A stretch of 64,000 nt of DNA, from UHGV virus genome UHGV-0240527; one strand, 5' to 3'. Position numbers and translations under genes: made by a program. This stretch comes from a virus. Shown here in pieces: positions 15,711 to 58,108 of this stretch. How positions within the stretch are numbered: position 1 is the stretch's first letter; every line of letters begins with the position of its first letter. The notes under the pieces were generated by a model. It was not told where the DNA came from and searched no databases. It saw nothing but the letters and a program-made list of their open reading frames with translations.

Positions 15711-17126
15711 ATGAGCGAATTATTTAAACATGCGCACCTTCATGCAGGTCGAACTGAAAATGGTGCTGTAAACCATACTTCATCAATGTCTGCTCTTGTA
15801 GACTTTTACAAAGCTGCTGGTTCAAGCCGTAGCAATGTAGAAATCTTACCAGACTTGTTCTACAAAGCTTTGCGTGAGGATGTTGATGTTGCAGTTCGTA
15901 TTTTGCTTCATATGCGAGATGTACGAGAAGGTATGGGTGAGCGTAAAGCCTTCAGAACTGTTTTGCTTCAAGCAATTGAAGATAAAGTTTTAGAGCCTAC
16001 ACAGGTTCTTCGCATTATGGATAAGATTGCAGAACTTGGTCGTTTTGATGACTTCAAAATCTTCGTGGGTACTTGTTTCGAGACAGATGCCTTCAAACAT
16101 TTAGAAGCAGCATTACTAGACCCTGCAACAGCAGGTTTGGCGGCTAAGTGGTTACCACGAGTCAAACCACGTCATAAGCAGTTTGTAAAACGTTTCTGCA
16201 AGTTTGCCAACTTGAGCGAGAAAGAGTACCGCACACTGTTATCTGCACTATCTGATACAGTTGAGCAAAAAATCTCTGCTAATGAGTTTGGCAAGATTGA
16301 CTACAGTAAGGTTCCCTCACTTGCTGCTGCACGTTACCAAAAACTGTTTAACCGTAAGGATGGAGAACGTTACAAAGCTTACATTGAGTCCTTATCAAAA
16401 GGTGAGGCTAAGATTAATGCTGGTGCTGTTTACCCATACGATGTGATTAAATCTGTCAAGCATGGTAATGCAGATGTTGCTAATGAGCAGTGGAAAGCAC
16501 TACCAAACTGGATGGCAGAAGGTGAAAACATCTTGTGTATGTCTGATGTATCAAGTTCAATGTCTTGGGTGAATTTTGGCTCCATTACTGCTCTGGATAT
16601 TGGTGTATCACTTGCCTTGTATGTAGCAGAACGCAATACAGGTTGCTTTAAGAATGAGTTGATGGTTTATTCAACAAACCCTCACTTCATCGAACTGAGT
16701 GGTGATTTACGAAACCGTCATCGTCAGGTGATGCGACACGTTGAATATGGCTCAACTAACTTACAAGCAGCTTTTGACCGCATTCTTGAGACAGGCAAAA
16801 GAAACAACTTGACTCAGAAAGATATGCCAAGTAAGCTTATCATCTTCTCCGATATGGAGTTTAATCAGGTTGATGGGGCTAACGGTCGTACAAACTTTGA
16901 AGCAATTCAGAGTAAGTACAAAAAAGCTGGATATGAGATGCCACAACTGGTATTCTGGTACTTAGCAAACCGTAATGGTACTTGCGAAGTATCTGTTAAG
17001 GATAACGGTGTAGCAATGGTATCAGGGTTCTCTCCAGCCACTTTAAAAGCTCTGCTTGGTGGTGAGAAGTTTGACCCAATCAGTGTAATGCTCAAAGCAG
17101 TAATGATTGACCGTTATATCTGGTAA
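15711..17126 (+). CDS. vWA-domain protein with Ro60/TROVE-like architecture (candidate RNA-binding protein)
   Basis: C-terminal MIDAS-like DxSxS (MSDVSSSMSW) and downstream FSDMEF; about 270-aa helical N-terminal region; family assignment is from architecture only. Confidence 0.45.
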   Translation: MSELFKHAHLHAGRTENGAVNHTSSMSALVDFYKAAGSSRSNVEILPDLFYKALREDVDVAVRILLHMRDVREGMGERKAFRTVLLQAIEDKVLEPTQVLRIMDKIAELGRFDDFKIFVGTCFETDAFKHLEAALLDPATAGLAAKWLPRVKPRHKQFVKRFCKFANLSEKEYRTLLSALSDTVEQKISANEFGKIDYSKVPSLAAARYQKLFNRKDGERYKAYIESLSKGEAKINAGAVYPYDVIKSVKHGNADVANEQWKALPNWMAEGENILCMSDVSSSMSWVNFGSITALDIGVSLALYVAERNTGCFKNELMVYSTNPHFIELSGDLRNRHRQVMRHVEYGSTNLQAAFDRILETGKRNNLTQKDMPSKLIIFSDMEFNQVDGANGRTNFEAIQSKYKKAGYEMPQLVFWYLANRNGTCEVSVKDNGVAMVSGFSPATLKALLGGEKFDPISVMLKAVMIDRYIW

Positions 17127-17291: not shown

Positions 17292-17368
17292 CTCTGTTTA
17301 GCTCAGCTTGGTAGAGCGTTCCGTTTGGGGCGGTAAGGCCGGAGGTTCAAGTCCTCCAACAGAGACCA
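17292..17368 (+). tRNA. tRNA-Pro (anticodon UGG)
   Basis: manual cloverleaf: 7-bp acceptor CTCTGTT/AACAGAG, T-loop TTCAAGT, anticodon loop TTTGGGG, CCA encoded. Confidence 0.65.
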
Positions 17369-17375
17369 AATTAAT

Positions 17376-17453
17376 GTTCCAGTAGACAAAATGGTAAAGT
17401 CACCACTCTTTCAAAGTGGATATCTGAGGGTTCAAATCCCTTCTGGAACGCCA
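17376..17453 (+). tRNA. tRNA-Glu (anticodon UUC)
   Basis: 7-bp acceptor GTTCCAG/CTGGAAC, anticodon stem CCACT/AGTGG, loop CTTTCAA, CCA encoded. Confidence 0.7.
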
Positions 17454-17543
17454 GTTTTGACAGAAGACCAATTACAGCAAACTTAATCTACTCATCTGAA
17501 AGTTAATCGGACAAAGAAGATATTTGGTCTGGTCATTAAGAAT

Positions 17544-17620
17544 TGCGGGTATAGAGAAAGGGCGTCTCACATGTCTCATTAGCATGGTATCGGCAGGTTC
17601 GACTCCTGCACCCGCCTCCA
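17544..17620 (+). tRNA. tRNA with CAU anticodon (Met, initiator or Ile2); non-canonical features
   Basis: T-arm GCAGG/CCTGC and 6 of 7 acceptor pairs with 1:72 mismatch; anticodon loop CTCATTA; 3-nt 8/9 linker. Confidence 0.45.
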
Positions 17621-17703
17621 AATTTACAGAAGACCGTTTACAGCAATATTTATTAAATTTTTAGCGGAAAAATTGAAAGATACGGTCTGGTAATACTAAA
17701 CAT

Positions 17704-17780
17704 GGTTAGGAAGCACATAAGGTATGTGCGGTCGCCTGTTAAGCGAATGGCACAGGGTTCGAATCCCTGACTAACCGCCA
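17704..17780 (+). tRNA. tRNA-Asn (anticodon GUU)
   Basis: acceptor GGTTAGG, D-stem GCAC/GTGC, anticodon loop CTGTTAA, T-loop TTCGAAT, CCA encoded. Confidence 0.7.
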
Positions 17781-17849
17781 AATTTAGGAGAGAAGTGATT
17801 GCTCACCGATTTGTAAGGTGCAAGTCCTTAGCCTGAATAGAAATTAAAT

Positions 17850-17937
17850 GTGTCGTTATCCCGTAGATGGTAGCGGTGGGGACTGTAAATCCCTTGTCAT
17901 TGAGACTCGGTAGGTTCGACTCCTACACGGCACACCA
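17850..17937 (+). tRNA. tRNA-Tyr (anticodon GUA), long variable arm
   Basis: acceptor GTGTCGT/ACGGCAC, anticodon stem GGGGA/TCCCT, loop CTGTAAA, 88 nt, CCA encoded. Confidence 0.7.
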
Positions 17938-17942
17938 ATAAA

Positions 17943-18019
17943 GGCTATGTAGTTTAACTGGAGAAAATACTCCCCTGTCACGGGAGATGATGTGAGTTCA
18001 AGTCTCATCGTAGCCGCCA
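17943..18019 (+). tRNA. tRNA-Asp (anticodon GUC)
   Basis: acceptor GGCTATG/CGTAGCC, anticodon stem CTCCC/GGGAG, loop CTGTCAC, CCA encoded. Confidence 0.75.
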
Positions 18020-18448
18020 ATTTTGAGAGGGCTGTTTAGCCCATCCCTTAAAGAGTTCTTACGAGTATTCTTTAAGGGAGCAGAAGACCAAATACAGCAA
18101 GAATGTATGAAATTTCAAGCCAATTTAATTTTGAAAATTTAAAACTTGGTCTGGCTCAACAAATTTACAGAAGGCCGTTTACAGCAAAACTTAAACAATC
18201 TATTTCTCCGGTAAAGAAAAGGCGAAGGTTCGATTCCTTCACTCGGCAGATGTCGAGTTGGTGTAATGGTAGCACTTAAGATGATAAACAACGGTCTGGT
18301 AATTACCTTTGTAGATAAGTTATTAAGCTTACTTGTGAGTATGCGACCACAAAGGGTGAATGGGTAAATTCTAGATTTAAACCCAAAAAGGCACATCGCT
18401 ACAGACCTTAAGCAAGTCTGGGTAGCTTATCTACAAAGATAATTTAAT

Positions 18449-18524
18449 GGAAGTGTAGCAGAATGGTGATGCGGCAGACTTTTAATCTGACAGGCGATGG
18501 GTTCGAATCCCTCCACTTCTACCA
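18449..18524 (+). tRNA. tRNA-Lys (anticodon UUU)
   Basis: acceptor GGAAGTG/CACTTCT, anticodon loop CTTTTAA; T-stem imperfect; paralog of the CUU Lys tRNA. Confidence 0.6.
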
Positions 18525-18528
18525 ATAT

Positions 18529-18605
18529 GGTTCAGTCGCAGATAAGGTAATGCAAGGGTCTCATAAGCCCTATGAATGTGGGTTCGATTCCCATCTGAAC
18601 CTCCA
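18529..18605 (+). tRNA. tRNA with CAU anticodon (Met or Ile2)
   Basis: perfect 7-bp acceptor GGTTCAG/CTGAACC, anticodon stem AGGGT/GCCCT, loop CTCATAA, CCA encoded. Confidence 0.7.
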
Positions 18606-18606
18606 A

Positions 18607-18682
18607 GCTGGTATAGTTAAGAAGGTTATAACACTCCCCTGATAAGGGAACATCGGTGGTTCGATTCCACCTACCAGTACCA
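18607..18682 (+). tRNA. tRNA-Ile (anticodon GAU)
   Basis: acceptor GCTGGTA/TACCAGT, D-stem GTTA/TAAC, anticodon loop CTGATAA, T-arm GGTGG/CCACC, CCA encoded. Confidence 0.75.
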
Positions 18683-18697
18683 ATTTCAATAAAGTTG

Positions 18698-18726
18698 TTG
18701 ACATTGAGATGTGACTACTTTATAGT
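18698..18726 (+). promoter_or_regulatory. sigma70-type promoter inside tRNA array (TTGACA, 17 bp, TATAGT)
   Basis: hexamers and spacing read directly. Confidence 0.55.
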
Positions 18727-18930
18727 AACCTTAGTTTTCGTTGCGTAGCGTCTATTTTGCAAATTTAAAATAAATGCAAACGACAATGTTTTTCTGGCAG
18801 TAGCTTGATAGGCTAAACACCAGTGAGGTCTTCCAATCCCTCATCAAAGAATTTGGCGTACTCGCCCACGGTATGATTAATAAGGTGGGCATCTTTAAGG
18901 GCTTTCTAAGAGAGTCTTTAAAGATAATTA

Positions 18931-19012
18931 CGGGGCGTATCTCAGCGGTCTTCTAAACCGCCGTTAACCGAGTAAGTGGAGTATGCGGGTTCGAGTCCTG
19001 CCGCCTCGACCA
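18931..19012 (+). ncRNA. tRNA-like element: perfect acceptor stem and T-arm but no canonical D-arm; internal hairpin with loop CTTCTAA (UCU)
   Basis: 7-bp acceptor CGGGGCG/CGCCTCG, T-arm GCGGG-TTCGAGT-CCTGC, CCA encoded; body cannot be folded into a standard cloverleaf. Confidence 0.4.
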
Positions 19013-19026
19013 ATTTTGGAGAAATC

Positions 19027-19374
19027 ATGAAAACTTGTATTAGGTGCAAACTTAGCAAGGATGAAAATGATTTCTACATGAAAGATGGTAGGAGAACTCA
19101 TTCATACTGTAAAAAGTGTGTTAATGAGCAAACCATAGAAAGACAAAGAGCACTTAAACTCTTAGCTATTGAGTACAAAGGTGGGGTTTGTCATGATTGT
19201 GGTAAGAAGTATCATCCAGCAGTGTATGACTTCCATCATTTGAATCCTTCAGATAAAGATTTTAACATTGGTCATAGGAAAAGCCTTAAGTTCTCTCAAG
19301 AACTAAAAGATGAACTTGACAAATGTGTTTTGCTATGTTCAAATTGCCATAGGGTAAGACATGCAAAATATTAG
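19027..19374 (+). CDS. HNH family homing endonuclease
   Basis: motifs CxxC..CxxC, DFHHLNPSDKDFNIG and CSNCHRVRH typical of HNH nucleases; start moved to ATG with GGAG RBS (track start is an upstream GTG inside the tRNA-like element). Confidence 0.7.
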   Translation: MKTCIRCKLSKDENDFYMKDGRRTHSYCKKCVNEQTIERQRALKLLAIEYKGGVCHDCGKKYHPAVYDFHHLNPSDKDFNIGHRKSLKFSQELKDELDKCVLLCSNCHRVRHAKY

Positions 19375-19511
19375 TTAGCAGATTACTTAGACGACCTTAG
19401 CGGGTCTTCCTGTAGGGAGGTGGTCTGTATCTCATGTTTTCCAGAACATGTAAATAATCTGAGAAGGGGCTTTACAGTGTTGAGATAATACGGTAAGCTT
19501 CGAATTATAGT

Positions 19512-19594
19512 ATGGGACGATGTTAAGACTCTAAGGCATGAGCAACGGCTTCCAACACCGTTTCAAAGGGGTTCAACTCCTCCGTCCCATGCCA
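19512..19594 (+). ncRNA. tRNA-like element with aberrant anticodon arm (9-nt loop CTTCCAACA containing UCC); possible degenerate tRNA-Gly paralog
   Basis: perfect 7-bp acceptor ATGGGAC/GTCCCAT and T-arm with CCA, but non-canonical D region and loop size. Confidence 0.4.
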
Positions 19595-19607
19595 AAGTCT
19601 TATTAGG

Positions 19608-19695
19608 GGTAGGTAGCGGCTAATGGTAGCCAAACTGTCTTGAAAACAGTTGCCACTGTAGAGATACGGTGAGGGTTCGACTCCTTTACTTACCG
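19608..19695 (+). tRNA. tRNA-Ser (anticodon UGA), class II
   Basis: acceptor GGTAGGT/ACTTACC, anticodon stem ACTGT/ACAGT, loop CTTGAAA, long variable arm, G73; CCA not encoded. Confidence 0.65.
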
Positions 19696-19852
19696 CCTAA
19701 TAAGATTTAAAGCCAAGCTTCATTCGGATGTTGCTTTGGTATCCCTCGTGTATTGTCGTACACACTGATAAAACACCTAGTAGGTGTCACGGAGAAGAGA
19801 TAATATCAAGCTCTCCAAAGGTTCTAGTCACCGGATTAAACAAGACTATGCA

Positions 19853-19875
19853 AAGACCTATTTAGGTCTTTTTAG
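19853..19875 (+). terminator. putative intrinsic terminator within tRNA array
   Basis: AAGACCTA..TAGGTCTT hairpin followed by TTTT. Confidence 0.45.
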
Positions 19876-19952
19876 AGGGCTTCTAAGGTTATTACAGCTT
19901 GTTGTGGAACCTTGTTGCTTAGGTTCTTAGAAGTTCTCTAAAAAGATTTAAT

Positions 19953-20029
19953 GCACCTATAGCCCAACTGGTAGAGGCAGCAGACTTAGAATCTGCTCAG
20001 TGTGAGTTCGAATCTCTCTAGGTGTACCA
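19953..20029 (+). tRNA. tRNA-Leu (anticodon UAG) with short variable arm
   Basis: acceptor GCACCTA/TAGGTGT, anticodon stem GCAGA/TCTGC, loop CTTAGAA, A73, 77 nt, CCA encoded. Confidence 0.6.
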
Positions 20030-20036
20030 AATTAAT

Positions 20037-20112
20037 GCAGGTGTAGCAGAATGGTTATGCGGCTGACTCTTAATCAGTAAGACGATGGGTTCAATTCCCT
20101 CCACCTGTACCA
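20037..20112 (+). tRNA. tRNA-Lys (anticodon CUU)
   Basis: acceptor GCAGGTG/CACCTGT, anticodon stem GCTGA/TCAGT, loop CTCTTAA, CCA encoded. Confidence 0.65.
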
Positions 20113-20118
20113 AACATT

Positions 20119-20194
20119 GGGGATGTAGTTTACATGGTTAAAACATAAGTTTTGCAAACTTAAGTACAGGGTTCAATTCCCTGCTTCTCCACCA
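20119..20194 (+). tRNA. tRNA-Ala (anticodon UGC)
   Basis: G3:U70 wobble pair present in acceptor; D-stem GTTT/AAAC; anticodon stem TAAGT/ACTTA, loop TTTGCAA; CCA encoded. Confidence 0.7.
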
Positions 20195-20200
20195 ATTAGT

Positions 20201-20275
20201 GCATCCATAGTTTAAACGGGAAAATTACAGTCTTCCAAACTGAGGTTGAGGGTTCGATTCCCTCTGGATGCTCCA
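20201..20275 (+). tRNA. tRNA-Gly (anticodon UCC)
   Basis: perfect acceptor GCATCCA/TGGATGC, T-arm GAGGG/CCCTC, anticodon loop CTTCCAA, CCA encoded. Confidence 0.7.
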
Positions 20276-20281
20276 AACAAT

Positions 20282-20358
20282 GCTGCTTTCGTATAATTGG
20301 CTATTACACATCCCTTGTAAGGATGGAAATGCAGGTTCGAGTCCTGTGAGCAGCACCA
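20282..20358 (+). tRNA. tRNA-Thr (anticodon UGU)
   Basis: acceptor GCTGCTT/GAGCAGC, anticodon stem CATCC/GGATG, loop CTTGTAA, CCA encoded. Confidence 0.75.
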
Positions 20359-20454
20359 ATTCAGAGGTCAAGTGAAAGACCGCTTTGAGTCAACTGAAGA
20401 CCGTAACAAATACCACGGAGTTGAGTTAGCGGCACAACTTCAGACCTCTTTCAT

Positions 20455-20529
20455 ACTCGCTTAGTTTATATGGTAAAACATCACCATTACAAGATGAAGA
20501 AAAAGGTTCAAGTCCTTTAGTGAGTACCA
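20455..20529 (+). tRNA. tRNA-Val (anticodon UAC)
   Basis: acceptor ACTCGCT/AGTGAGT, D-stem GTTT/AAAC, anticodon loop ATTACAA, T-arm AAAGG/CCTTT, CCA encoded. Confidence 0.7.
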
Positions 20530-20530
20530 T

Positions 20531-20608
20531 GTTCCAGTATCCCAATTGGCAGAGGATGCAAGCTCAAACCTTGTATTAGTGACGGTTCGAATCCGTCTTG
20601 GAACACCA
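20531..20608 (+). tRNA. tRNA-Leu (anticodon CAA) with short variable arm
   Basis: acceptor GTTCCAG/TTGGAAC, anticodon stem GCAAG/CTTGT, loop CTCAAAC, A73, 78 nt, CCA encoded. Confidence 0.55.
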
Positions 20609-20613
20609 ATTTT

Positions 20614-20686
20614 GCAGGATTAGTTCAAATGGAAAGAGCAACAGTCTACGAAGCTGTTAATAGGGGTTCGAATCCCTTATCCTGCG
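20614..20686 (+). tRNA. tRNA-Arg (anticodon ACG)
   Basis: perfect acceptor GCAGGAT/ATCCTGC, D-stem GTTC/GAGC, anticodon loop CTACGAA; CCA not encoded. Confidence 0.7.
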
Positions 20687-20706
20687 CTAGATAAAAAGGT
20701 GATACT

Positions 20707-20949
20707 ATGCAAACATTAACAGTAGTTGAACATGAAAACTGTGAGAGTATTGAGTTTGTCAGGGTCATTGGTGTTGAACACCACATTTTCTTAAAAGTGG
20801 GATACTTATGTGACCCCGCTAGAGTAGAAAGATTTATACGTGATTGTTTTGGTGGTAGACATCTGAAGAGTGTTATTTTTGAGACAGTTTTACCAGAAGG
20901 TTTAGAAACGAATAATAACATTTACCTCCTTACGAGGATTAGACAATGA
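20707..20949 (+). CDS. hypothetical protein (embedded in tRNA array)
   Basis: ORF track; AAAGGTGA RBS. Confidence 0.45.
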   Translation: MQTLTVVEHENCESIEFVRVIGVEHHIFLKVGYLCDPARVERFIRDCFGGRHLKSVIFETVLPEGLETNNNIYLLTRIRQ

Positions 20950-21503
20950 GATACTTAAAGTATGCTTCATGGATTTTCTTAGCTTTGTTAGAGCCATTTG
21001 CAGCAATCTTAGCAGTTATCTTAGCACCTTTTGTAGTTCCATTCTACAGTGAGAAGAAAGGACACTTACCTTTCGGGTTCAGATGGATGGAGACATATGA
21101 CAACCCAATTGATGGTGATGAAGGTCACGTTAAAAGATGGGCTAATATTAGATGGATTGGTAAGCTGGGTGTCTACATGCAGAGAGTTGGATGGCTCTGG
21201 AGAAACAAAGCTTATAACTTCTCTTACCATGTATTAGGAAGAGATGTAAAAGATGTTACTAAGTGGAAAGGTAATATCAACGTAAGTTCTGACCCCGAAG
21301 ATAATCAGACAGGTTATCTCCTAATGTGGAACAGTAATGCTTGGGGATTATTCGCTTTTATCCCATCAATTAAAATCTTTGGTAAACAATTTTACTGGAG
21401 AATTTATATTGGATGGAAACTAAAAAGTGTTGTCCCAGAAGAAAGAGCATTCTCAAGGGAAAGAGTTATGTTGGCATTCTTTATTCATCCACTGAGAAAG
21501 TAA
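20946..21503 (+). CDS. hypothetical membrane protein (embedded in tRNA array)
   Basis: ORF track; hydrophobic N-terminus WIFLALLEPFAAILAVILAPFVVPF; start overlaps upstream stop. Confidence 0.5.
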   Translation: MRYLKYASWIFLALLEPFAAILAVILAPFVVPFYSEKKGHLPFGFRWMETYDNPIDGDEGHVKRWANIRWIGKLGVYMQRVGWLWRNKAYNFSYHVLGRDVKDVTKWKGNINVSSDPEDNQTGYLLMWNSNAWGLFAFIPSIKIFGKQFYWRIYIGWKLKSVVPEERAFSRERVMLAFFIHPLRK

Positions 21504-21511
21504 AGATTTAA

Positions 21512-21587
21512 AGGGGATTAGTTTACAAGGTTAAAACCTCGGTCTTTGAAATCGAAGAAGTTGGTTCAATTCCAACATCCCCCGCCA
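21512..21587 (+). tRNA. tRNA-Gln (anticodon UUG)
   Basis: unpaired 1:72, G73, D-stem GTTT/AAAC, anticodon stem TCGGT/ATCGA, loop CTTTGAA, CCA encoded. Confidence 0.7.
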
Positions 21588-21589
21588 AT

Positions 21590-21668
21590 GCTCCATTACT
21601 CCAATTGGCAGAGAGGCCAGACTTAAAATCTGTGTTATGTATCGGTTCGAATCCGATATGGAGTACCA
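21590..21668 (+). tRNA. tRNA-Leu (anticodon UAA) with short variable arm
   Basis: acceptor GCTCCAT/ATGGAGT, anticodon loop CTTAAAA, T-arm ATCGG/CCGAT, A73, 79 nt, CCA encoded. Confidence 0.55.
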
Positions 21669-21673
21669 AATTT

Positions 21674-21749
21674 AGCGGTATAGCATAACTGGCAATGCAG
21701 CAGCCTCTGAAGCTGTCCTATTAAGGTTCAAATCCTTATGCCGCTGCCA
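21674..21749 (+). tRNA. tRNA-Gln (anticodon CUG)
   Basis: acceptor AGCGGTA/TGCCGCT, D-stem GCAT/ATGC, anticodon stem GCAGC/GCTGT, loop CTCTGAA, G73, CCA encoded. Confidence 0.7.
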
Positions 21750-21780
21750 CTTCTAAGGATTCTTGCGAGAGTCCTTAAAT

Positions 21781-21856
21781 GTGGCCTTATCATAAATGGT
21801 AATGACCCATGCTGTGAACATGGTCTATACGGGTTCAAATCCCGTAGGTCACCCCA
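21781..21856 (+). tRNA. tRNA-His (anticodon GUG)
   Basis: acceptor GTGGCCT/AGGTCAC, D-stem TCAT/ATGA, anticodon stem CCATG/CATGG, loop CTGTGAA, C73, CCA encoded. Confidence 0.7.
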
Positions 21857-21861
21857 ATTTA

Positions 21862-21936
21862 TAGTCCAAGTAGCTTATATGGTTAAAGCGCGTGTCTGAA
21901 AAACATGAGAAGAGGGTTCAAATCCCACTGGACTAC
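21862..21936 (+). tRNA. tRNA-Phe (anticodon GAA)
   Basis: perfect acceptor TAGTCCA/TGGACTA, anticodon stem CGTGT/ACATG, loop CTGAAAA; 3' terminus ambiguous. Confidence 0.6.
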
Positions 21937-21954
21937 CAATTTCAAAGGTGCTTA

Positions 21955-22689
21955 ATGAAAGAGATGACAGAACAAGGTAAGGAGATTTTTAATCTCTTAA
22001 AAACCGGTAAAGGGTTCTCTAACCCACTGATTACTGGTGCAGCAGTTCTCGGTGGAACCGTAGCTGCTTCTACATCACTTGTAAGCTCTATTAGTTCTGT
22101 AACAGACCCTACAATGAAGGAGAAACTTGTTGCTGCTGGACTTACAACAGTCCTTCTAAACAGCTTTACAACAAGCCTTACAAGCACTACAGCAACTACT
22201 AAAACTCTGACAGACTACGGTCAAAAGTCTATTGATGAGTTTTCATCACGTATGCAGGTAGCAAAGGGATACTCCAATGTTATGGGTGCAGCAGGAGAAC
22301 AAGTTGGTTGTACACCATTCAGTGGTATTATGGGTGTTGCTACAGAGTATGGTCAAAAAGCTATTGACATGATGAACAGTACACTGGATAGTGTTAATGG
22401 TGTATTAAGTGACTTACAAGATGCTATTGATAAGGGTCTTGATACTGTTTCTGATTTAGCTAATCAGGCTGTTAGTAAGATTAATGAAGGTATTTCAAAG
22501 ATTACAGCTTATGCAGATGAAGTTGTGCAGATGATTGAAGAAGAAGCTGCCCTTATTGCAGAGTACCTTAAAACGAATATCAATGGGTTCTTAGCAGGTA
22601 TCTTACCAGACTGGTTTGATGATGCTTGTAAAACTGGTGTAATTGACACTATTGCAACACCAGAAATGAAGAACGCATTACAGAAATAA
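21955..22689 (+). CDS. hypothetical Ser/Thr-rich protein (embedded in tRNA array)
   Basis: ORF track frame; start moved to ATG 21955 after AAAGGTG RBS because the track start overlaps tRNA-Phe. Confidence 0.5.
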   Translation: MKEMTEQGKEIFNLLKTGKGFSNPLITGAAVLGGTVAASTSLVSSISSVTDPTMKEKLVAAGLTTVLLNSFTTSLTSTTATTKTLTDYGQKSIDEFSSRMQVAKGYSNVMGAAGEQVGCTPFSGIMGVATEYGQKAIDMMNSTLDSVNGVLSDLQDAIDKGLDTVSDLANQAVSKINEGISKITAYADEVVQMIEEEAALIAEYLKTNINGFLAGILPDWFDDACKTGVIDTIATPEMKNALQK

Positions 22690-22691
22690 AT

Positions 22692-22784
22692 GGAAGATTA
22701 ACCCTAAAAGGTAAGGGAGCAGTTTGCTAAACTGCCAGTAGCTGAGAAATCGGTGTACCAGTTCAAGTCTGGTATCTTCCTCCA
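22692..22784 (+). tRNA. tRNA-Ser (anticodon GCU), class II
   Basis: perfect acceptor GGAAGAT/ATCTTCC, anticodon stem GCAGT/ACTGC, loop TTGCTAA, about 21-nt variable arm, CCA encoded. Confidence 0.7.
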
Positions 22785-22788
22785 ATTT

Positions 22789-22864
22789 GAATCCGTGACA
22801 GAAATGGCTATGTGCCTGTCTGCAAAACAGGTTTATAAGGGTTCGAGTCCCTTCGGATTCTCCA
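22789..22864 (+). tRNA. tRNA-Cys (anticodon GCA)
   Basis: perfect acceptor GAATCCG/CGGATTC, anticodon stem CCTGT/ACAGG, loop CTGCAAA, U73, CCA encoded. Confidence 0.75.
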
Positions 22865-55350: not shown

Positions 55351-58050
55351 TTAGTGAACCTCAAGCCAGCTTTTACCAACCTTACCATTACCTGTAACAA
55401 GTGTTTCTTTCTTAAGACCTAAGTTTTTAGAAGCTTGTCCATAATACCAGTCAGTAACTGCTTTCACTTCTGCCGTCATACTTTCTGGACATTCCCAGCT
55501 TGTTTCATCGTGATATGCGCAGAGTAAACGAGCACCAATAGCTGGTTGACGACCATTCAACTTCATCAAACCTTCGTCAATCATACGACGACAAGCAAGG
55601 TTAATTGCCTCATTTTGAATCTGAGCCTCTGAACCCATCAAAAGATAATTCAACAGTTTGTGTGGAGATTTACACCACAACCAAGCTCCAGCAACCTTTA
55701 CGAAACCCCCTTTAGAGATTGCAGCAGTCTTACCAAACACCTCTTCAAGTGCCTTTTTAGTTGCTTTGTAGTCAGCTTCTAAGTCATCTAACAGCTTCTT
55801 AATTTTAGGCAAACGGATAAAGTAAGTCTGTTTAGTCAGTGCACCTTCCTGAGTAGTTGCAGCTTTAATTGTCTTAGCAAACTTCTCATCACCTGCACCG
55901 AACAGCAGTGCATAGATACCATTCTTAGCTTTCTTACGACCCTTGCTAATCTCATGAAGAAGATTCTCATCCTGAGTAGCTCGACAAGTCAAGATATCTT
56001 GCTCATCATTCAAGCTAAAGTAAATACTATTCAGTGTGTGTGCATCAGTCCCTGAATAGACAACGTAAAGGTCATTCTCAGAGTCATAGCGAAGGTACTT
56101 ATCAATCTCTGGGTTGAGGTACTCATCAAAATGTTTGCAGTAATAGCGTCCATCTTCTTGACGAATAAACTCAATCTCTTCTTTACCTTGCGTTACCGCT
56201 TTGGTGAAGTCTTTGTCACCCATAAAGTTACAAAGGAGAACTAGCTGGGCTGAGTTCATGTCTACAGAGACAACATTAGTACCTTCTTCACAAATCCACA
56301 CTGCCCTCATTGGCTCCCCATAGACAGCAGCACCAGACGGTACGTTTACAATACCATATTGTGTCATACGTCCAGTTGAAGTACCAAATACCATTGCACC
56401 AGCACTAAGGCGACCATCTGGACGAATCTGGTTCAGCCAACCTTTCTCGTCATCCTTTGAGTTCTCAATAGTTCTGCGTCGGTGCATCAAAGTATAGTAC
56501 TTCGCAATCTTCTGTCCAAGCTCACCTTCAATCGTATCATAAGATGATTCAGTAAGTTTTGGTGAAGTACGGATTAAGCAAGGCTCAAGCAAATCTGTGT
56601 ATTTCTTCACAGACCAGTTATGCTCGATGTACTGTACACCTTCATGTTCAACATAACTCAAACCACACCGCTCAACCATTTCCTGCCACTTAGGATGCTT
56701 TGTAATCATCTTTTTATTGTCTTTGAAACGACAAACTTTGACAGGGCGACCATCTGAGTCTTTCTTGTAATTCCAGTCATCTGGAATCCAACCAACTGAT
56801 TTCAAGTAGTCTTTAACAACTGCTACCTGAGTCATACGAGAAACTTCAAACTCAATTGGTGTATATGGTGCATCAATCAATCCTGTGTAGCGACTTGACT
56901 CCAGTTCAAAGTGGTTAACAACATGGCTGTTATAGTACTTCACAGTTTTAACAGTTTTTACTGGCTTCCAGTCTTTGCATTTCTTACCAATCTTTGCATT
57001 CAACTCGTTGCAAATTGCACGAGCATCCTTCATTGCTACAAAGCCTTCCTTGTACTCTTCACCAGTTACAGAGTTGGTTGGTGTATAGCAATTTCTCTTT
57101 TCAATGTTAAAAATCTTTGTAGTTGGCTTACCAAATGGCTTGATTTCGTATGTCTGCATCTCACCGTTACGTACCTGCTGACGATACTTTGTTTTAGGGT
57201 ACTTGGTAATTCTCTTCAGTCCATCTGCATGACCGAATGTTTCAACATACTCATTCCAAGCTTTTGCAAACTCTTCTCCAGTGACTTTACCTTTGGTCTT
57301 AATAGTTGGAGGTAGATGTGGTTCAACCTCTGAAGCAAGTTCATTAGTCAATTTGTCAAGCTCCTTTACATGGAACTCCATAAGCTCCTTATCAGCTTTC
57401 CAACCATTGATAGCTTGTTGGCTCATCCAGAAAGATGTCTCTTTAGCTCGCATGTAAGTTTCATAAGTGTCTATACCACACTTCTTAAGCTTGAGATACT
57501 CGTTATCAAGTGCCCGTTTAGTTTTGGCGTTAATACGGATATCTTCTACAACACGAGTGAAGATTTCTGCATTCCACACACCCCAATGTTCAATCTCTGG
57601 TTTACGAACACCAACACGAGCACCCCATGCAGCCAAGCCATGAGCGCCTTTATAACCCTTTGGAGTTGGTCTATCCATCCACTGAACACGAGACTGGATA
57701 AGAGAATCCTGAAAGAAATTACTCCACGGCTTACACTTTGGATTATCAAAGTTCCATAAATCCGGTGCAATGTGATTGAAAACCCACCAGTCATAACCGA
57801 GACCATTATGGATACAAAGTCGTTTTGCCTTCAACGCAAACTCAATACCTTCACGTAATCCACCCTTGATGTACTTAGTGTACTTGTGACCGAGAATAGG
57901 CTCATCAGTAAAGACCCATACTGGTGGTTCTTCGTCGTCAGATTTGTAGTCTGCGAAAGCCATTACGTGAACTTTAGTGAACTCAAGGAGTAAACCATCA
58001 GTTTCTGTATCACCAACTAAATGTAAGTTTTTAAAATCTACGTTTTCCAT
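55351..58050 (-). CDS. DNA polymerase, family A, with 3'-5' exonuclease domain
   Basis: N-terminal exo motif LHLVGDTETDG; C-terminal motif C region LLCAYHDETSWE; about 900 aa; start placed at ATG with GAGGGAG RBS. Confidence 0.8.
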   Translation of the reverse strand: MENVDFKNLHLVGDTETDGLLLEFTKVHVMAFADYKSDDEEPPVWVFTDEPILGHKYTKYIKGGLREGIEFALKAKRLCIHNGLGYDWWVFNHIAPDLWNFDNPKCKPWSNFFQDSLIQSRVQWMDRPTPKGYKGAHGLAAWGARVGVRKPEIEHWGVWNAEIFTRVVEDIRINAKTKRALDNEYLKLKKCGIDTYETYMRAKETSFWMSQQAINGWKADKELMEFHVKELDKLTNELASEVEPHLPPTIKTKGKVTGEEFAKAWNEYVETFGHADGLKRITKYPKTKYRQQVRNGEMQTYEIKPFGKPTTKIFNIEKRNCYTPTNSVTGEEYKEGFVAMKDARAICNELNAKIGKKCKDWKPVKTVKTVKYYNSHVVNHFELESSRYTGLIDAPYTPIEFEVSRMTQVAVVKDYLKSVGWIPDDWNYKKDSDGRPVKVCRFKDNKKMITKHPKWQEMVERCGLSYVEHEGVQYIEHNWSVKKYTDLLEPCLIRTSPKLTESSYDTIEGELGQKIAKYYTLMHRRRTIENSKDDEKGWLNQIRPDGRLSAGAMVFGTSTGRMTQYGIVNVPSGAAVYGEPMRAVWICEEGTNVVSVDMNSAQLVLLCNFMGDKDFTKAVTQGKEEIEFIRQEDGRYYCKHFDEYLNPEIDKYLRYDSENDLYVVYSGTDAHTLNSIYFSLNDEQDILTCRATQDENLLHEISKGRKKAKNGIYALLFGAGDEKFAKTIKAATTQEGALTKQTYFIRLPKIKKLLDDLEADYKATKKALEEVFGKTAAISKGGFVKVAGAWLWCKSPHKLLNYLLMGSEAQIQNEAINLACRRMIDEGLMKLNGRQPAIGARLLCAYHDETSWECPESMTAEVKAVTDWYYGQASKNLGLKKETLVTGNGKVGKSWLEVH

Positions 58051-58108
58051 TTTTACTCCCTCTAAAATCATTAACCTCATACATTACTGCAAAAAATTAT
58101 AAAAAGCA

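Follow-up and report, generated by a model that had tools for sequence, protein, structure and literature searches.

The window analysed here is the whole 64,000-nucleotide stretch of the virus genome UHGV-0240527, and the genes of interest are three tRNAs with leucine anticodons (UAG, CAA and UAA) which lie in a large tRNA array (Table 1). The window has a GC content of 38.9% and comes from an AT-rich Felixounavirus. Many Felix O1-group (Felixounavirus) phages of Escherichia, Salmonella and Shigella show 94-97% identity to the region carrying these genes. This region is matched by 294 phage records, where the annotation given by the depositors is 'tRNA-Leu (x3)'. The array sits between a DUF2828/DUF7788 gene and the terminase gene, and its gene order is the same as in the arrays of phages Moogle and Sf14. 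All three genes were found to encode class I tRNAs, in which a short variable loop stands in place of the long variable arm of E. coli tRNALeu. Judging from their sequences, they are most probably functional leucine tRNAs which are leucylated by the host's (E. coli or Salmonella) leucyl-tRNA synthetase (LeuRS) and which read UUA, UUG and CUA as well as CUG.

Table 1. Positions of the leucine tRNA genes, the tRNA array and other features of the window (ORF, open reading frame; in the parses the variable region is in square brackets)
Feature	Position	Strand	Description	Cloverleaf parse
tRNA-Leu(UAG), class I	19953..20029	+	77 nt including encoded CCA; ARAGORN, Rfam (57.3 bits), own parse	GCACCUA UA GCC-CAACUGGUAGA-GGC A GCAGA CUUAGAA UCUGC [UCAGU] GUGAG UUCGAAU CUCUC UAGGUGU A CCA
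tRNA-Leu(CAA), class I	20531..20608	+	78 nt including encoded CCA; ARAGORN, Rfam (44.0 bits), own parse	GUUCCAG UA UCC-CAAUUGGCAGA-GGA U GCAAG CUCAAAC CUUGU [AUUAGU] GACGG UUCGAAU CCGUC UUGGAAC A CCA
tRNA-Leu(UAA), class I	21590..21668	+	79 nt including encoded CCA; ARAGORN, Rfam (47.5 bits), own parse	GCUCCAU UA CUC-CAAUUGGCAGA-GAG G CCAGA CUUAAAA UCUGU [GUUAUGU] AUCGG UUCGAAU CCGAU AUGGAGU A CCA
tRNA array	17292..22864	+	25 tRNAs by ARAGORN, all on the plus strand; a few small ORFs interspersed	
tRNA-Tyr(GUA), class II	17850..17937	+	15-nt variable arm; internal control; ARAGORN, parse	
tRNA-Ser(UGA), class II	19608..19697	+	20-nt variable arm; internal control; ARAGORN, Rfam, parse	
tRNA-Ser(GCU), class II	22692..22784	+	21-nt variable arm; internal control; ARAGORN, Rfam, parse	
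tRNA-Met(CAU)	17544..17620	+	ARAGORN	
tRNA-like element	18931..19009	+	Rfam (31.7 bits), no ARAGORN call	
ORF inside the array	20948..21503	+	Between tRNA-Arg(ACG) and tRNA-Gln(UUG)	
471-amino-acid ORF	15711..17126	+	Immediately upstream of the array; Pfam DUF7788 (1.7e-43), DUF2828 (3.9e-30)	
Family A DNA polymerase gene	55351..58080	-		

Structure and leucine identity of the three tRNAs

The three Leu genes all pass the Rfam tRNA covariance model (RF00005, gathering score 29 bits) over their full length (model positions 1-71 of 71), and in our cloverleaf parse each of them has an acceptor stem with 7/7 pairs and A73. The variable regions are UCAGU (5 nt), AUUAGU (6 nt) and GUUAUGU (7 nt) in Leu(UAG), Leu(CAA) and Leu(UAA) respectively, against 13-15 nt, with U at the end, in the four tRNALeu isoacceptor types of E. 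coli K-12 used for comparison (leuZ, leuQ/P/V, leuW and leuX). Each gene combines a leucine anticodon with a short variable loop lacking a hairpin, which is the type I form of tRNALeu. Leu(UAG) has a G1-U72 pair and a U50-U64 mismatch in the T stem, while Leu(UAA) has a G1-U72 pair and a C27-U43 mismatch in the anticodon stem. Copies of Leu(UAG) which are 100% identical were observed across many Felixounavirus records. The Leu tRNAs of Citrobacter phage Moogle are either identical to those of the window, as is the case for Leu(CAA), or differ at two positions, as in Leu(UAA).

An earlier note, made from the letters alone, had reported three tRNAs of 77-79 nt with these leucine anticodons, variable loops of 5-7 nt and A73, together with long arms in the Tyr tRNA and both Ser tRNAs of the same array. 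ARAGORN, the Rfam model and our parse bear out all of these observations, and neither program gave a long arm or another anticodon for the Leu genes. An artefact of prediction, in which the real tRNAs would be long-armed or carry other anticodons, is refuted for practical purposes, since ARAGORN, the Rfam model and the depositors' annotations of the relatives agree. Furthermore, Leu(CAA) and Leu(UAA) each have a neighbouring tRNA within 1-7 nt on either side, and the next tRNA downstream of Leu(UAG) begins after 7 nt, so that there is no space for a longer gene or a hidden long arm.

The leucine determinants of E. coli are A73, the A15-U48 pair, G18G19, A20a and contacts of the D loop with the T loop; for its LeuRS, neither the long arm nor the anticodon serves as a determinant, and arm-less variants stay active (review PMC9976931). 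All three window tRNAs have U8-A9, A14, A15, U48 as the last nucleotide of the variable region and A73. By sequence, the U8-A14 and A15-U48 partners are thus present in 3/3 and would be expected to pair. The T loop is UUCGAAU in 3/3, which provides U54, U55, C56 and A58 for the elbow contacts. The D arm has the length and register of the E. coli arm: it is 17 nt long with a 3-bp stem and a loop of the form N-A14-A15-Y-U-G18-G19-Y-A-G-A. The four E. coli types have U8-G9, A73 and likewise a 17-nt D arm with a 3-bp stem, with [G/A]AAU[U/C]GGUAGA as the loop. The D-arm sequences compared are CAACUGGUAGA and CAAUUGGCAGA in the window and GAAUUGGUAGA, GAAUCGGUAGA, AAAUUGGUAGA and AAAUCGGUAGA in E. 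coli, where all arms are 17 nt and A20a is included. In addition, the G1-U72 pair of two of the window genes is also found in E. coli tRNALeu(UAA).

The Leu-type D-arm motif was observed in 111 of 210 Leu-anticodon tRNAs of a phage sample and in only 5 of about 1,140 others. As this sample was partly picked by a D-loop motif, the first fraction is inflated, while the rarity of the motif in other tRNAs is unaffected. The motif therefore seems to be nearly exclusive to Leu tRNAs and close to diagnostic for them. The A15-U48 pair was also considered as a marker found in Leu only and was dropped, as 29% of the non-Leu phage tRNAs have it. Identity over the whole tRNA body, with anticodon and variable region masked, to E. 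coli, T5 and window tRNAs was uninformative (0.62-0.71 to many isotypes); the only tendency was for the three Leu tRNAs to match one another best.

The earlier note had also suggested that the amino acid charged might differ from that implied by the anticodon. Charging with another amino acid would lead to recoding or ambiguous decoding of UUA, UUG and CUA, and could be entertained because the class I form is atypical for a bacterial tRNALeu and because E. coli LeuRS (EcLeuRS) failed on a type I tRNALeu of Streptomyces coelicolor, as described below. Besides LeuRS, the synthetases which ignore the anticodon are the alanyl and seryl enzymes (AlaRS and SerRS). The determinants of both are absent: the 3:70 pairs of the three tRNAs are A-U, U-A and U-A, none being the G3:U70 of Ala (the tRNA-Ala of the array does have G-U), and none of the three has the long arm of the Ser type that both Ser tRNAs of the array carry. 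What the three tRNAs retain is the D arm of the Leu type, along with A73 and A15-U48. Moreover, the tRNALeu of the host would decode the same codons as leucine at the same time.

Isotype scores are available from a 2025 study of Sf14 (PMC12482277), a phage called Moogle-like there, whose gene order is the same and whose anticodon loops match for two of the three Leu tRNAs. With the tRNAscan-SE isotype models, Leu ranks first for Leu_TAG at 67.4 (followed by Ile2 with 65.7 and Lys with 63.4), for Leu_CAA at 49.1 (second is Lys with 36.1) and for Leu_TAA at 60.2 (second is Lys with 54.2). The margins are 1.7, 13.0 and 6.0 bits for TAG, CAA and TAA respectively, where the scores belong to the Sf14 genes and not to those of the window. 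Although Leu comes first for all three, Ile2 and Lys nearly equal it for Leu_TAG, which counts in favour of a non-leucine reading. The variable arm is nowhere mentioned in the Sf14 study (PMC12482277).

The meaning of the codons was examined by aligning the family A DNA polymerase of the window to 16 homologues with 27-69% identity. Codons UUA, UUG and CUA lie opposite Leu at 246 of 421 homologue residues (58%), similar to CUU and CUC (247 of 418, 59%) and CUG (50%), and this alignment gives no sign of codon reassignment. These three codons align to Leu like the other Leu codons do. We therefore regard charging with an amino acid other than leucine as highly improbable, and the suggestion of a shifted charging identity was not borne out. 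In the long ORFs of the window, UUA, UUG and CUA form 28%, 14% and 10.5% of the Leu codons and together 53%. In E. coli these are minor codons and CUG is the dominant one.

No synthetase was found among the ten longest of the 13 window ORFs of at least 330 amino acids. When 50,697 phage records were searched by tblastn with E. coli LeuRS as the query, 29 hits were obtained, with none in Escherichia, Salmonella, Mycobacterium or Streptomyces phages. As no phage LeuRS was found for this group, the LeuRS of the host would do the charging if these tRNAs are charged.

We also noticed changes in the anticodon loops. The loop of Leu(UAG) (positions 19984-19990) is CUUAGAA and that of E. coli leuW is UUUAGGU, the three differences being C32, A37 and A38. 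With A37 in place of the G37 of the host tRNA, the G36-G37 context for m1G37 is gone. In Leu(CAA), position 38 is C, as against A in the host.

Distribution of short-armed tRNALeu

The same short Leu tRNAs were found in all sampled genera of the Ounavirinae and in Vequintavirinae, Otagovirus, Bixzunavirus, Streptomyces, Gordonia, Enterococcus, Lactobacillus and Vibrio phages. Within the Ounavirinae, the Leu tRNAs of Moogle, Arno18 (Pectobacterium) and Roscha1 (Erwinia) are 77-79 nt long with loops of 5-7 nt. In Moogle the depositors give lengths of 77, 78 and 79 nt with 'codon recognized CUA / UUG / UUA', while in Arno18 and Roscha1 the stem sequences are largely different and yet the class I Leu form is kept and the Ser and Tyr tRNAs are long. 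The earlier note would have counted it against its own reading if such tRNAs were routine in the related phage group, and this is what was observed, with their occurrence in unrelated phages going beyond it. Its view of the three genes as unusual Leu tRNAs holds for their structure, which is class I and unlike the four E. coli types and the tRNALeu of T4 and T5. The form itself is very common.

When the 77-nt Leu(UAG) gene was used as a query, near-full-length and gap-free matches to annotated tRNA-Leu genes were found in 318 phage records, including 83 of Mycobacterium, 52 of Streptomyces, 13 of Pseudomonas, 13 of Enterococcus, 9 of Lactobacillus and 7 of Gordonia phages. ARAGORN runs on nine of the matching loci gave Leu tRNAs of 74-80 nt and Ser and Tyr tRNAs of 83-95 nt. 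We compared the class I tRNALeu of Certrevirus CR9, Otagovirus phiPsa315, Bixzunavirus Ghost, Streptomyces phage LilMartin, Gordonia phage Mareelih, an Enterococcus Schiekvirus, a Lactobacillus Harbinvirus and Vibrio phage F86 with the window genes. They are 74-80 nt long with a loop of 5-6 nt ending in U, A73, U8-A9, a GCC-CAAYUGGYAGA-GGC D arm and often G1-U72. The window Leu(UAG) aligns to them without gaps at about 74-87% identity, and all of them are annotated as plain tRNA-Leu. Unlike the window, these phages belong to other hosts and families, and their loop is mostly exactly 5 nt where two of the window genes have 6 and 7 nt. In the F86 locus, two features annotated as tRNA (647-767 and 781-900) are 120-121 nt long, far over the normal size, and may contain introns or be mis-annotated.

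A structural pattern scan of IMG/VR matched at least 120 loci. Viral contigs and phages together yielded 174 unique class I Leu tRNAs. Among the matches listed, A73 is present in 173 of these, A14A15 in 163 and a terminal U48 in 165, and about 90% have a 5-nt loop. In a set of 181 unique class I Leu tRNAs, 98.1% of the stem pairs are canonical, compared with 59.7% after the partners were shuffled, and most stem positions show 3-6 types of pair. The stems of this set had been pre-filtered for at least 6/7 acceptor pairs and at least 4/5 T-stem pairs, so that the percentage of pairing is inflated in these two stems.

A less biased sample was drawn from 118 IMG/VR loci through an unrelated T-arm motif, of which 30 arrays with at least five tRNAs were kept; it is small and some bias remains. 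Among the matches listed, its 36 unique Leu tRNAs comprise 13 with a short loop and 22 with a long arm, whereas short forms were observed in 0/22 Ser and 1/12 Tyr tRNAs. Several of these arrays hold both types of Leu tRNA. The trait is not found in every coliphage, since both T4 and T5 have class II tRNALeu, of 87 nt in the former and of 85 nt (13-nt arm) in the latter, although they too are phage-encoded and lie in tRNA clusters of E. coli phages. T5 was also considered as a source of charging data and was set aside for this reason.

The identity of position 9 was observed to follow the architecture. Adenine is found here in 133 of the 174 class I Leu tRNAs among the matches listed, including the three of the window, and guanine in 21/22 class II Leu tRNAs among the matches listed and in all E. 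coli tRNALeu. The change from G9 to A9 alongside the short form might reflect a class I core that has been remodelled. G9 together with an E. coli-like D arm is found in some class I Leu tRNAs, which look like recent, independent deletions of the arm. The coexistence of this form with the A9 form carrying the GCC-CAAYUGGYAGA-GGC arm suggests more than one origin. A minority of the viral class I Leu tRNAs have instead a CAGYGGUAGAG / ACAGC form, as does the tRNALeu(CAA) of Streptomyces and Kitasatospora.

Type I tRNALeu is already known from mitochondria, from S. coelicolor and from a mycobacterial tRNA cluster. The type I tRNALeu(CAA) of S. coelicolor (Fan et al. 2019, NAR, PMC6614811) resembles the window genes in its Leu anticodon, 5-nt loop and A73. 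It coexists with long-armed tRNALeu in one cytoplasm with a single LeuRS, and it is leucylated by this enzyme (ScoLeuRS) and by human mitochondrial LeuRS (PMC6614811). Unlike the window genes, it is chromosomal, single-copy in Streptomyces and Kitasatospora and outside phage arrays, with usually no other tRNA within 8 kb among the matches listed. Its sequence in these genera is GCCCCGG UA GUCCAGCGGAAGAGAC A CGGUG CUCAAAC CACCG ACAGC GUGGG UUCGAAU CCCAC CCGGGGC A. The D arm is 16 nt (CAGCGGAAGA) and G15 and C48 are present in 79/82 copies among the matches listed, where the window has A15, U48 and a 17-nt arm of the E. coli type.

A mycobacterial tRNALeu(TAG) (Behra et al. 2019, PMC6582537) likewise has a short variable loop and lies in a horizontally mobile multi-tRNA cluster, where it adjoins an HNH endonuclease gene while the isoacceptor of the cell itself is long-armed. 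This cluster is in a bacterial genome, unlike the window, and the tRNA is treated in one sentence, without identity elements or a general link to phages (PMC6582537). The tRNALeu(UUR) of animal mitochondria is also class I and is charged without a long arm, its identity resting on A73 and A14 (PMC9976931). It differs from the window tRNAs in having a dedicated mitochondrial LeuRS, a floppy structure and another evolutionary setting. An experimental parallel is with engineered arm-less E. coli tRNALeu (Larkin et al. 2002; Asahara SELEX), which, as far as these studies are relayed in the review, are charged and edited by E. coli LeuRS when A73 and the tertiary contacts between D and T loops are intact (PMC9976931). 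By analogy, the phage tRNAs look like natural counterparts of these laboratory constructs.

Several observations weigh against functional tRNALeu charged by the host enzyme. The one bacterial type I tRNALeu tested, tRNALeu(CAA) of S. coelicolor, could not be leucylated by EcLeuRS, and Fan et al. describe EcLeuRS as charging type II only (PMC6614811). Our literature search found no charging experiment on the phage tRNAs. The combination of A15, U48 and A73 occurs in 129 of 896 non-Leu tRNAs (14%) and so is not Leu-specific, the margin of Leu_TAG in Sf14 is small, and the 6- and 7-nt loops exceed the 5 nt typical of the class I set. To these can be added the stem mismatch in each of Leu(UAG) and Leu(UAA), the inflation of the pairing percentage mentioned above, the unremarkable RNAfold z-scores (-0.3, -2.2 and -1.7) and a minimum free energy fold of Leu(UAA) which is not a cloverleaf. 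Single-sequence folding was set aside as evidence, as it is non-diagnostic and such results are usual for tRNAs. With regard to EcLeuRS, the A15-U48 pair is missing in the S. coelicolor tRNA, which may explain the failure of the enzyme and would then reconcile these data with charging of the phage tRNAs by the host.

The two mismatches and the unexceptional folding, along with a degenerate tRNA-like element in the same array, might also be taken to mean that the genes are decaying or have roles outside translation, such as pseudogenes, processing signals or decoys. Near-identical sequences are however present in hundreds of Felixounavirus genomes, and the class I cloverleaf is kept with compensatory changes in the stems across Ounavirinae genera and about 180 unique relatives. 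Furthermore, the T loop is intact, as are A73 and the encoded CCA, and the demand for UUA, UUG and CUA is high. Decay or a non-translational role is therefore very unlikely. The structure and its conservation, the retained determinants, the breadth among phages, the lack of a phage LeuRS in this group and the Leu-like codons are shown here, while charging by the host LeuRS and use in translation are inferred.

We also looked at mycobacteriophage Gaia, which replaces the host tRNA-Leu-CAA, whose gene is destroyed, with its own copy ('tRNA-dependent lysogeny' paper). The tRNA-Leu of Gaia is 83 nt long and class II, so that it is silent on the function of the class I form.

Neighbouring elements of the array

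The predictors differ for two other members of the array, as the tRNA-Met(CAU) and tRNA-Tyr genes called by ARAGORN are not reported by the Rfam model at its gathering threshold. The tRNA-Met(CAU) has an atypical U9 and U73. The tRNA-like element has a 7-bp acceptor stem, A73, CCA, a normal T arm and an anticodon stem-loop with UCU (Arg). It is without a D arm, with only 7 nt from the acceptor to the anticodon stem, and has a 'variable' region of 23 nt with a small hairpin. This element fills the slot of the canonical tRNA-Arg(UCU) in Moogle and Sf14. Its anticodon and T arms can be aligned to the Moogle tRNA-Arg(UCU) and its 5' part cannot. With conservation of 95% or more, it occurs in 127 Felixounavirus records, where it is mostly unannotated or lies beneath an 'HNH endonuclease' coding sequence. 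The element is either a decayed tRNA-Arg or an odd tRNA without a D arm.

The ORF immediately upstream of the array matches DUF7788 and DUF2828, the latter of which is related to Ro60/TROVE plus vWA proteins. In Gordonia phage Mareelih, a gene annotated as 'Ro-like RNA binding protein' and a tmRNA were observed immediately upstream of the tRNA array. It may be that phage tRNA arrays are repeatedly linked with Ro-like RNA-binding proteins. Inside the array, part of the ORF between tRNA-Arg(ACG) and tRNA-Gln(UUG) (window positions ~21009-21239) has about 70% DNA identity to 'hypothetical protein' genes of many large Klebsiella, Enterobacter and Escherichia myoviruses, including the Pseudotevenvirus RB43. 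It appears to be a small conserved gene which moves with tRNA regions across phage families.

Loss of the variable arm

Bacterial tyrosyl-tRNA synthetase (TyrRS) contacts the long arm of its tRNA. For SerRS, the size of the arm is required (PMC9976931). The Ser and Tyr tRNAs of these arrays would keep their arm because their synthetases use it, and since the arm is not read by bacterial LeuRS of the E. coli type, the Leu tRNAs can lose theirs. Only Leu tRNAs would then be able to shed the arm. The simplest account is a permissive loss, in which the arm might have been shed in compact phage arrays since LeuRS has no need for it.

A more specific cause is also conceivable, in which the arm-less form was selected in order to escape toxins or nucleases which choose class II tRNAs by the arm, or the depletion of host tRNAs by the phage. 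This concerns the cause of the arm loss and is compatible with charging by the host LeuRS: decoding of Leu codons would persist once the host tRNALeu is disabled, and Leu would be the only class II family able to escape enzymes of the MenT/AbiEii type or similar ones, as the Ser and Tyr tRNAs are barred from it by the need of their synthetases for the arm. According to a 2026 preprint, class II tRNAs are the likely preference of the abortive-infection nucleotidyltransferase AbiEii, as they are of MenT3, and MenT1 has a tRNALeu as its target. The class I Leu form recurs in unrelated phages of Proteobacteria, Actinobacteria and Firmicutes, often beside class II Leu, which suggests more than drift. 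The three differences from the host in the anticodon loop of Leu(UAG) also belong to a pattern which others have linked to the evasion of anticodon nucleases. On the other hand, there is no evidence of such a toxin acting on Felixounavirus or, in E. coli or Salmonella, on tRNALeu; class II tRNALeu is retained in T4 and T5; and a tolerated deletion without benefit explains the same data more simply. Therefore, we consider adaptive loss of the arm to be unlikely, and the occurrence of the short form raises the question of whether arm loss helps phages to evade tRNA-targeting defences. If the loss were adaptive in this way, type I tRNALeu occurring in nature would be charged by E. coli LeuRS, against the published statement of this enzyme charging type II only.

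Permissive loss, with leucylation by the host, remains the preferred reading. The short-armed Leu tRNAs are an ordinary trait of this phage group and involve no change of the genetic code. The tRNA-Leu annotation of the window is sound and there is no hint of recoding. These genes are annotated as tRNA-Leu in hundreds of records, and the full-text literature search gave no description of the short-armed form as a widespread phage trait or of its identity elements. Isotype models are trained on class II tRNALeu, which leads to narrow margins, and annotation pipelines may therefore label some of these genes as 'tRNA-OTHER' or undetermined.

Textbooks, like the recent primary literature, place bacterial tRNALeu in class II and present S. 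coelicolor as exceptional in having two types which share one LeuRS. In our small sample of phage arrays, about one third of the Leu tRNAs among the matches listed are arm-less, and this was almost never observed for Ser and Tyr. These tRNAs form a large natural set of sequences for asking what LeuRS needs, and the prediction is that E. coli LeuRS charges type I tRNALeu with A15-U48. Infected cells of E. coli, Salmonella, Mycobacterium, Streptomyces, Enterococcus and other hosts would routinely hold both types of tRNALeu.

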